The translations under genes were made by a program, and so were the position numbers. A stretch of 21,924 nt of DNA, from positions 1 to 21,924 of the IMG/VR virus record IMGVR_UViG_2609459845_000023. One strand, 5' to 3'. Source of the DNA: a virus (taxonomy: Duplodnaviria > Heunggongvirae > Uroviricota > Caudoviricetes). The notes beneath the pieces were generated by a model. The model had not been told where the DNA came from. It saw nothing but the letters and a program-made list of their open reading frames with translations, and made no database searches. Below, piece by piece: positions 3,432 to 8,367 of this stretch. Numbering within the stretch: position 1 is the stretch's first letter; each line of letters begins with the position of its first letter.

Positions 3432-3770
3432 TTATATCATTAATTTTGTTTCGTGCCAGCCTTTGGTCACCCAGCATTGTGAGTCACCATTACACGGGCA
3501 TGAATTAACAGGAACTCTCTCGCCGCACTTACCGCAACGTTTTCTGCTGATCGATTTTATACGCCAGCGCACACGTGCATCATCCTGGCGGCTCAGTAAC
3601 GCGATGTACTCACCAAACTCGTAAGGCGCATGCCTGAAGCGGCGCGTGGCTCAGTTACGATCCAGCATTTCAATTTCCTGAGCATCAAGTACAAGCTCCA
3701 GCTTACGCATACCGGATGATGCTTGCTTGGCTCTCTGATCGACTTTGCGCTCTGCTGATGATTTAGCCAT
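3432..3770 (-). pseudogene. Cys-rich (zinc-ribbon-like) small protein gene interrupted by an in-frame TGA at 3651..3653
   Basis: ATG at 3770 with SD AGGAAAAG; 39 codons (MAKSSAERKVDQRAKQASSGMRKLELVLDAQEIEMLDRN), then TGA, then 72 further in-frame sense codons (ATRRFRHAPYEFGEYIALLSRQDDARVRWRIKSISRKRCGKCGERVPVNSCPCNGDSQCWVTKGWHETKLMI) with no internal restart ATG. Confidence 0.5.
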
Positions 3771-4063: not shown

Positions 4064-4678
4064 TTATCTAAAAGTCTTTCCACTTTTAACGTCTAGGTAT
4101 ATTCTGTTCGACAACGTCATTCCTCCGCAATATGTGAAATAGATGTTTTTCCCCTTATTGCTTGATGCCATCCACCCTCCGATTTCCTTAAAGTCGCTTT
4201 CCGTGCAGACCCCTTCGTTTATTAACTTCCTAGCTGCCGAAGAAAACTCTTTTTTGTATATACGGTAGTCATCAGATCCTTTGATTAAAGTATCATCTCC
4301 GCTCGCATTTTCAGCAGGATCTGATGGCCTTTCACTGCTAAGATCACTAAGTTTAACCCATTCTGAAAACTTGCCATTGACGATTCCGTTTTTTCTTGTG
4401 CAGGATTTATTACCTTCTTTAATATATTCGCTTTCCCCTCCCACACATGAGGCTGAATATGGCTCAGTTATACGAACCCATTCACCTTTTTTTTCTAGAA
4501 AATCTACGCCTTCCCTGAAAAATAGTTTCCCAGCCACTCCACATTTACTTGAAGGGCAGGTATGTCTTTCCGTTCGATCAACAACAACCCAAAGTCTTGA
4601 TTCATTTTTTGCCATTGCCGATGGTATTTGAGATGAGACAATTAACGTAAGCCCTAAAATTAGTATTGATTTTTTCAT
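4064..4678 (-). CDS. secreted/periplasmic Cys-containing hypothetical protein (204 aa)
   Basis: track ORF; N-terminal signal peptide MKKSILILGLTLIVSSQIPSAMA; SD AAGGA 8 nt upstream; AT-rich. Confidence 0.75.
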   Translation of the reverse strand: MKKSILILGLTLIVSSQIPSAMAKNESRLWVVVDRTERHTCPSSKCGVAGKLFFREGVDFLEKKGEWVRITEPYSASCVGGESEYIKEGNKSCTRKNGIVNGKFSEWVKLSDLSSERPSDPAENASGDDTLIKGSDDYRIYKKEFSSAARKLINEGVCTESDFKEIGGWMASSNKGKNIYFTYCGGMTLSNRIYLDVKSGKTFR

Positions 4679-4814
4679 TGTAATTTCCTTTTACTTTTTA
4701 CAAAGCGTTTAATCATGGCTGATTATCTTTAAGCGTAGTAACAGCCTTGTGCGAAACATGTTACCAAATCGCCATTTCAGTGTATCCGCAGTTAGGCTGC
4801 CACTTCAAGGATTC

Positions 4815-5228
4815 CTAATTACATGGTACGTAAGCGTAAAATCCCGTTGGTTGTCGGGTAATAACTCTGATCAAATCTCCCTTGTCTTTTGCTCTTACGT
4901 ATGCAGCTCTTGTGTATTCAACCCAGGCCTCCAGTTCAGCAATACGCTTACTTCCATCCGAGATAACACCTTCTACTCACGCTGCTCGTTGAGTTTTGAT
5001 TTTTGCTGTCTCCAGCTCAACACGCAGTTTCCTCACCGTTAGCGCAATATCCTCGTTCTCCTGGTCGCGGCGTTTGATGTACTGCTGGTTTCTTTCCCGT
5101 TCATCCAGCAGTGTCAGCACAATCGATGGTGTTACCAGCTCATGGAAAAGGTCCGCGTCAAATCCCCAGTTGTCATGCATTGCCTGCTCTGCCGCTTCAC
5201 GCAGTGCCTGAGAGTGAATTACGCTCAC
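4815..5228 (-). pseudogene. hypothetical coiled-coil protein gene with in-frame TGA at 4977..4979 (83 codons + TGA + 53 codons)
   Basis: track ORF 4977..5228 (MSVIHSQALREAAEQ...AKIKTQRAA) continues in the same frame past TGA as VEGVISDGSKRIAELEAWVEYTRAAYVRAKDKGDLIRVITRQPTGFYAYVPCN to a TAG at 4815..4817. Confidence 0.5.
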
Positions 5229-5446
5229 TTCGAACCTCTCTGTTTACTGATAAGTTCCAGATCCTCCTGGCAACTTGCACAAGTCCGACAACCCTGAACG
5301 GCCAGGCGTCTTCGTTCATCTATCGGATCGCCACACTCACAACAATGAGTGGCAGATATAGCCTGGTGGTTCAGGCGGCGCATTTTTATTGCTGTGTTGC
5401 GCTGTAATTCTTCAATTTCTGATGCTGAATCAATGATGTCTGCCAT
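5225..5446 (-). CDS. TraR/DksA-family C4 zinc-finger protein (73 aa)
   Basis: track ORF with CxxC...CxxC spacing (CCECGDPIDERRRLAVQGCRTCASC) typical of phage TraR/DksA-type zinc fingers; stop overlaps the start of the downstream ORF. Confidence 0.7.
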   Translation of the reverse strand: MADIIDSASEIEELQRNTAIKMRRLNHQAISATHCCECGDPIDERRRLAVQGCRTCASCQEDLELISKQRGSK

Positions 5447-5495
5447 CTTTCATTAATCCCTGAATTGTTGGTTAATACGCTTGAGGGTGAATGCG

Positions 5496-5522
5496 AATAA
5501 TAAAAAAGGAGCCTGTAGCTCC
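5496..5522 (-). terminator. intrinsic terminator (GGAGC-TACAG-GCTCC + U-run)
   Basis: minus-strand read GGAGCTACAGGCTCCTTTTTTATTATT immediately downstream of the 5545..5760 ORF. Confidence 0.55.
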
Positions 5523-8162: not shown

Positions 8163-8295
8163 TTTTTGGGACTCCTGGCTGATTAAGTATGTCGATAAGG
8201 CGTTTCCATCCGTCACGTAATTTACGGGTGATTCGTTCAAGTAAAGATTCGGAAGGGCAGCCAGCAACAGGCCACCCTGCAATGGCATATTGCAT
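8131..8295 (-). CDS. cIII: lambda CIII (FtsH inhibitor, stabilises CII)
   Basis: hand-translated 54-aa [57 protein letters not shown]; SD TAAGGAG upstream; below the track length cutoff. Confidence 0.9.
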   Translation of the reverse strand: MQYAIAGWPVAGCPSESLLERITRKLRDGWKRLIDILNQPGVPKNGSNTYGYPD

Positions 8296-8367
8296 GGTGT
8301 GCTCCTTATTTATACATAACGAAAAACGCCTCGAGTGAAGCGTTATTGGTATGCGGTAACGCCGCGC

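Follow-up and report, generated by a model that had tools for sequence, protein, structure and literature searches.

A truncated ea22 allele in a lambdoid prophage, very probably the product of a frameshift, and the open relic frame behind its TGA stop codon

The ea22 locus and its surroundings

The window, that is, the whole stretch of 21,924 nucleotides of IMG/VR record IMGVR_UViG_2609459845_000023 that was analysed, carries on its minus strand an 83-codon ORF with a GTG start (5228..4980) that ends at a TGA codon (4979..4977). Translation of the minus strand of 4815-5228 showed that this TGA is followed in the same frame by 53 sense codons (VEGVISDGSKRIAELEAWVEYTRAAYVRAKDKGDLIRVITRQPTGFYAYVPCN) and then by a TAG codon (4817..4815), which exactly reproduced the interrupted ORF reported in a preliminary description of the locus. 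A Pfam search showed that the 83-aa ORF matches PF13935 (Ead_Ea22) with 72.1 bits (E=9e-20) and that the conceptual 137-aa read-through product matches it with 85.5 bits (E=6e-24), the cut-off being 27 bits. The order of genes around the ORF is gam, bet, exo, DUF1317 (orf60a), DUF1382 (orf63), a gene for a hypothetical protein, TraR/DksA (orf73 homologue), ea22, accessory genes, xis, int and ybhC. By profile and synteny the ORF belongs to the Ead/Ea22 family, and it is the ea22 homologue in the exo-xis region of a lambdoid prophage adjoining ybhC. The early-left operon context was confirmed by the lambda cIII thermoregulator RNA at 8250..8308. The corresponding Rfam match (Lambda_thermo, minus strand, 88.5 bits, full-length model) was the sole one returned by a gathering scan of the window.

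The full Ea22 architecture is absent from the window. Translation and the Pfam match showed that the truncated ORF, which with its TGA occupies 4977..5228 (minus strand), covers the N-terminal segment together with about two thirds of the coiled coil; it stops at codon 84 within the coiled coil, and its last seven residues (IKTQRAA) are frameshift-derived. The open frame behind the stop, hereafter the relic, contains 36 non-Ea22 codons that end in VPCN. The window ea22 is a truncated member or a pseudogene of the Ead/Ea22 family, not an intact member. This status is already known, as RefSeq carries the identical sequence in Escherichia coli ATCC 8739 as a pseudogene, which PGAP labels 'ead/Ea22-like family protein; frameshifted; incomplete'.

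Immediately upstream, the ORF list places a 73-aa TraR/DksA-type zinc-finger gene (5225..5446, minus strand), the homologue of lambda orf73, which is labelled TraR/DksA family regulator in ATCC 8739, phage Chlobot and lambda relatives. Its TGA stop codon overlaps the GTG start codon of ea22 as GTGA, suggesting that the two genes may be translationally coupled. Promoter and terminator signals in 4600-5500 showed no excess over the shuffle expectation. Just downstream of ea22 lies a 204-aa ORF (4064..4678, minus strand) with a signal-peptide-like N-terminus (MKKSILILGLTLIVSSQIPSAMA...), which is kept in Chlobot and ATCC 8739 as 'hypothetical protein'. A 97-aa antisense ORF (4749..5042, plus strand) runs across the relic and matches an opposite-strand 'hypothetical protein' of Chlobot (locus L001, 2919..3203, minus strand); this call is probably an artefact that gene callers produce for want of a start codon in the relic frame.

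Compared with lambda ea22 (NP_040612, 182 aa, PF13935), the window gene lies in the same position, downstream of the orf73/TraR-like gene and upstream of xis-int, uses the same GTG start and encodes the same N-terminal segment and coiled-coil start. The DNA of the two is 95.7% identical over the first 531 nt of the query (orf73 and the 5' 300 nt of ea22). However, the window gene differs from lambda ea22 in carrying a +1 and a -4 indel and a stop at codon 84, and it lacks residues ~102-182, the C-terminal domain of lambda Ea22, for which an NMR structure is given in PMC10834534. The same allele, with its A5 run, 4-nt deletion and TGA, was found in Escherichia phage Chlobot (PP925838.1; 98.3% identity) and in E. 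coli ATCC 8739 (NC_010468.1; ECOLC_RS15460, annotated as a pseudogene; 100% identity). In ATCC 8739 an IS1, absent from the window, is located just downstream, between ea22 and the 204-aa ORF. Chlobot is a free phage in which the adjacent 112-aa gene is intact, having TGT where the window has TGA. At the scale of the whole 21.9-kb window, none of 5,426 complete E. coli genomes gave at least 80% coverage in one place, the best value being 70% at 98.2% identity, indicating that the prophage is a mosaic that is not represented whole in that collection. The ea22 slot of the best-covering relative, NT1F25, is occupied by an intact 135-aa allele ending in IRIKGE.

Origin of the stop codon and composition of the relic

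At least 20 independent complete E. coli genomes match the 451-nt region around the stop at 100% identity, 118 of the 5,426 cover at least 80% of it, and the identical TGA is present in 31 IMG/VR contigs, in 16 metagenome contigs and in phage Chlobot. These data exclude a sequencing error as the source of the ea22 TGA. Both TGA codons to which the preliminary description had drawn attention are real, the second lying at 3653..3651 on the minus strand, and each is followed by G as it had stated. The description had also considered the open frame unlikely to have arisen by chance. The probability of 53 open codons, calculated from base composition, is 0.026-0.055, and 8.6% of the stop-to-stop runs found across the window's six frames reach at least this length. 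A run of 53 codons is thus mildly unusual but not striking, and homology explains it fully.

Alignment of the window with lambda ea22 DNA revealed two indels, an insertion of one A and a deletion of TTAC. The insertion lies in an A5 run (5000..5004, minus strand), where lambda and every other Ea22 allele examined have A4: lambda has GCAAAATC and the window GCAAAAATC, other Ea22 alleles read GCAAAATCA at this site, and the frame shift starts here. The deletion sits 26 nt downstream of the additional A, at the junction between 4974 and 4973 (4973..4974, minus strand), where the alignments showed that the ancestral sequence, as in lambda, was GAGTATTACGAA and the window has GAGTAGAA. Lambda reads GCA AAA TCA AAA CTC AAC GAG CAG CGT GAG TAT TAC GAA GGT (AKSKLNEQREYYEG), whereas the window reads GCA AAA ATC AAA ACT CAA CGA GCA GCG TGA GTA GAA GGT (AKIKTQRAA*VEG; an asterisk denotes a stop codon). 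The aligned sequences thus define an out-of-frame segment, ATC AAA ACT CAA CGA GCA GCG TGA (IKTQRAA*; 4977..5000, minus strand), which replaces most of the ancestral TCA AAA CTC AAC GAG CAG CGT GAG TAT TAC. Ten codons are scrambled in this way, the family-wide SKLNEQREYY now being read out of frame as IKTQRAA*V; Ea22 alleles with unrelated N- and C-termini carry the motif AKS[KQ]L[NK]EQREYYEGVISDGSKRIAELE in frame. The TGA itself consists of the central bases of the ancestral CGT GAG (cgT GAg) read one base out of register and corresponds to no codon of the ancestral frame. The two indels sum to -3 and bring the ancestral frame back one codon after the TGA, resulting in the 53 sense codons behind the stop.

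The premature stop is thus accounted for by the +1 A and the -4 TTAC when the window is compared with lambda, a sister lineage and other alleles, and the window gene is very probably a frameshifted, truncated ea22 allele whose downstream frame is a relic left by ordinary gene decay. The default reading of the preliminary description, gene decay, was right in substance, and so was its view of the downstream frame as coding or formerly coding, since the relic is homologous to coding sequence. The TGA is not a point nonsense mutation in an otherwise intact frame but a by-product of the indel pair, with ten codons out of frame. Nor does the allele mark a defective prophage, as had been proposed, because the free-living phage Chlobot carries it and the exo-xis genes are dispensable (PMC10834534). 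The homologue alignment at the TGA codon, which had been put forward as a check, supported a formerly coding downstream frame but showed CGT GAG at that place and no conserved stop.

A UGA within a formerly coding frame and an A-rich run (GCAAAAATCAAAAC) where the frames diverge might also be expected of another kind of recoding, either incorporation of selenocysteine at the UGA or a programmed ribosomal frameshift on the A5 run, by which the stop would be avoided. However, the deletion creates GAG TAG AAG in the +1 frame, whose TAG overlaps the 0-frame TGA region by one base, so that after the A5 run frame 0 ends at TGA, the +1 frame ends at TAG, neither frame continues, and no single shift gives a longer product. 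In addition, an A5 run is too short for efficient transcriptional slippage. As for selenocysteine, no SECIS-like hairpin was found 3' of the UGA (z=+0.59) and there is no Rfam match, and the homologous position is an out-of-frame CGT GAG rather than a Cys codon. Both forms of this proposal are contradicted already by the nucleotides at the site, and hardly any credence was given to it.

The relic is composed of three parts. The first comprises 17 codons (VEGVISDGSKRIAELEA; codons 85-101; 4926..4976, minus strand) and corresponds to the conserved central Ea22 coiled-coil segment in the ancestral frame. The second, recognized by tblastn, translations and DNA alignment, is a mosaic patch of 23 codons (WVEYTRAAYVRAKDKGDLIRVIT; codons 102-124; 4857..4925, minus strand), whose DNA is ~90% identical over ~75 nt to an internal stretch (…GGNTWVECTRAAYVRAKDKGELTRVVT…) of intact, unrelated phage proteins. 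These patch-bearing proteins have 208, 221, 223 and 284 aa; the two annotated ones, Cyrano CYRAN_97 and the PhiR41_1 'EaA protein', come from ~108-kb Escherichia phages and the remaining ones from IMG/VR contigs of 4-108 kb. The patch in the relic is only part of a longer shared module. Inspection of loci L044-L070 showed patch proteins in which a common middle module (PVDHGFRDNCECSSCQ...WVECTRAAYVRAKDKGELTRVV...) is joined to several different N- and C-termini. No significant Pfam family was found for the 53-aa tail or for the Cyrano and PhiR41_1 proteins. The third part is a tail of 13 codons (RQPTGFYAYVPCN; codons 125-137; 4856..4818), followed by the TAG (4815..4856 in all, minus strand), for which no homologue was found. 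Unlike lambda ea22, the window has a relic without the K/R-G-E end that is typical of Ea22 C-terminal domains and has been described for all of them (Dydecka et al., PMC7093339).

The open frame is thus explained by present or former coding sequence, and the relic looks like a recombination scar rather than a normal Ea22 C-terminal domain. It is probably a chimeric tail in which recombination swapped the Ea22 C-terminal domain for a fragment of another accessory gene, and such a tail possibly left little to lose by truncation. When the 53-aa tail was searched against 5.8 billion protein clusters, no protein with an Ea22 N-terminus joined to the tail was found. No intact ancestor, with the Ea22 N-terminus in frame with the tail, was sampled, and the tail may once have been translated as part of Ea22.

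Only six tail-bearing proteins (P0001-P0006) were present in the 5.8 billion clusters, fused to other N-termini (TraR-like, orf63 and others). They were considered as candidates for the intact ancestor and rejected, as they are deletion derivatives or chimeric assemblies and none is fused to Ea22. Deletion derivatives in IMG/VR (L019, L022 and L028) match these tail fusions. The rare derivatives (P0001-P0006 together with L019, L022, L028 and L121), in which the relic frame is fused to other ORFs or part of ea22 is lost, show that the ea22 region is prone to deletion.

Lineages, selection and readthrough

The sister lineage (IMG/VR loci L036-L042) carries neither indel, and its tail is 85-87% identical to that of the window lineage. 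At the Ea22/patch junction (positions ~1540-1550 of these loci) it reads ...EQREYYEGVISDGSKRIAEL*A*VECTRFAYVRAKDKGELIRVITCQPTGYYAYVPCN (*A*VEC...), the two amber codons resulting from GAG to TAG and TGG to TAG changes; L042 has a third TAG (TCG to TAG), and every stop in the sister lineage is TAG. The same tail has therefore been cut off independently in the two lineages, by different lesions and with different stop codons.

To compare the two parts of the gene, differences between the window and the sister lineage were counted. The result showed 10 synonymous and 8 nonsynonymous differences in codons 1-76 (dN/dS 0.24, p=0.0017), whereas the 36 non-Ea22 codons of the relic showed 8 nonsynonymous (2 of them nonsense) and 4 synonymous differences, which is indistinguishable from neutral evolution (p=0.47), the counts being too small to decide. 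The N-terminal ORF is under purifying selection, and none is detectable on the relic.

The double-indel copies in the 31 IMG/VR and 16 metagenome contigs were uniform at the stop. The TGA is present in 47 of 47 and the A5 run in 46 of 47, the exception being L121, a deletion derivative that is missing that stretch. IMG/VR, the metagenomes and the GTDB species representatives were searched for a sense codon at the stop with a pattern that had NNN at the TGA codon. The results showed a sense codon in none of the 47 IMG/VR and metagenome contigs, and the pattern had no match in the GTDB species representatives. Exact-pattern scans of IMG/VR also found no single-indel intermediate, either A4 with the deletion (0) or A5 without it (0). 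Over all 414 nt, 30 copies of the TGA lineage each showed 0-6 differences from the window, and the 9 variable sites in 414 nt are too few to inform on selection. No stop has been gained within the relic in ~50 copies of the lineage, an observation of little weight because the copies compared are nearly identical (0-6 of 414 nt).

It might be argued that the UGA is read through functionally, possibly in a regulated manner, with Trp inserted at UGA-84, so that the gene has two products, the second being a 137-aa Ea22 variant. The coat protein and A1 of phage Q-beta are the model for such an arrangement, in which UGA readthrough is programmed and the extension is essential. Q-beta and the window share a UGA followed by an open in-frame extension and an E. 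coli host, where tRNA-Trp misreads UGA. Because UGA is the leakiest stop codon in E. coli, the window gene probably yields some extended protein; the downstream frame is open and in register, and both a viable phage and 118 of the 5,426 complete E. coli genomes retain the allele. The sum of -3 of the indels could likewise hint at selection for the downstream part, although a frame-restoring second indel arises by chance about once in three times.

However, the resemblance to Q-beta ends there: in the window the stop arose by frameshift, the extension is decaying in the sister lineage, and no selection on it is detectable. The UGA was born of out-of-frame ancestral codons and is not a conserved codon; it is confined to one near-identical lineage, with lambda, the sister lineage and other alleles reading CGT GAG, and the conservation of the stop across diverged homologues that is looked for in programmed readthrough is therefore absent. 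In the sister lineage the same tail is broken elsewhere, by TAG codons, and the tail itself, a piece of a foreign module joined to 13 orphan codons, lacks the Ea22 C-terminal hallmark. A stimulatory RNA structure is also absent, since 111 nt folded around the stop gave -23.6 kcal/mol against a shuffle mean of -25.3 (z=+0.59), and the gathering scan of the whole window gave no Rfam match at the ea22 stop. ARAGORN found no tRNA gene in the window, suppressors included. The regulated UGA readthrough that the preliminary description had left open thus found no support, given a stop limited to one lineage, the TAG codons of the sister lineage, the lack of an RNA structure and of a tRNA gene, and the absence, among the 5.8 billion clusters, of any protein joining Ea22 to the tail, and we regard it as improbable.

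A related proposal is that the +1/-4 pair is a pseudo-reversion: a first indel would have truncated the protein, and the second would have been selected because the stop codon that it brought into frame with the old C-terminal tail was UGA, which leaks, and not the tight TAG. If this were true, the gene would yield mostly 83-aa Ea22 together with a small percentage of the 137-aa form, and the ratio of the isoforms could change with growth state and temperature, both of which affect UGA leak in E. coli. This was judged still less probable than functional readthrough itself. A third possibility is that the locus holds two genes, with the 53 codons forming a small ORF of their own. Translation of this ORF would begin behind the ea22 stop, either by reinitiation or at a non-canonical start codon. 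Overlapping or abutting coupled small ORFs are indeed common in the operon, the GTGA of orf73 and ea22 being an example. However, no in-frame ATG, GTG or TTG occurs before codon 37 of the 53, the 53-codon frame is missing from the ORF finder list and was called neither in the Chlobot annotation nor by PGAP, homology places its first 17 codons inside Ea22, and the relic of the sister lineage contains stops; a separate gene is very improbable.

The truncated product and the second TGA codon

Lambda Ea22 is a pro-lysogenic tetramer composed of an N-terminal segment, a coiled coil and a dimeric C-terminal domain (PMC10834534, PMC7093339). Its C-terminal domain alone is inactive, and the domains differ freely among phages (PMC10834534, PMC7093339). 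On the reading of the window gene as a frameshifted, truncated allele, ribosomes on the pL transcript would pass from the TraR-like gene to the 83-codon ORF by coupling at the GTGA overlap. The product would be an 83-aa Ea22 fragment that retains the short N-terminal segment and some two thirds of the coiled coil but no C-terminal domain, and a 137-aa product with Trp at position 84 would arise only from ordinary, unprogrammed UGA leak. In a K-12 reporter such leak was measured at ~2% at 37 C, against ~4% at 25 C (PMC10570021). A small amount of the 137-aa product is accordingly expected from it, and nothing indicates selection on the leak.

The dN/dS of 0.24 and the presence of the allele in the viable phage Chlobot argue that the truncated Ea22, with its N-terminal and coiled-coil part, may not be junk, suggesting that this part is the one under selection here. 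This would be of mild interest for work on pro-lysogenic Ea22, whose C-terminal domains swap freely. Otherwise the case has little importance beyond annotation hygiene: an open frame past a stop can stem from a compensated frameshift and then be mistaken for recoding.

The second TGA (3653..3651) lies within a gene of a 112-aa family (3770..3432, minus strand). Its homologues, epsilon15 gp49, phiV10 gp55, TL-2011b gp20 and the Chlobot copy, are all 112 aa long and are labelled 'transcriptional regulator' or 'hypothetical protein', and Cys is invariant at the position of the TGA codon in five homologues. In related prophage copies the codon at 3653..3651 is TGT in 18 and TGA in 14, and PGAP labels the gene 'internal stop'. 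No structure was found after this TGA (z=-0.04). These comparisons show a separate, polymorphic nonsense change, a Cys (TGT) to TGA substitution. The preliminary description had treated the two genes as an opal-interrupted pair; the lesions are unrelated, an indel pair in one gene and a substitution in the other, so that the two TGA codons have no common mechanism and the coincidence of stop type is no evidence for recoding. It is mildly odd that a nonsense allele is this frequent in place of a conserved Cys. Both ea22 lineages include copies with the TGA allele of this gene, and the codon two places upstream of that TGA may be GAG or GAT.
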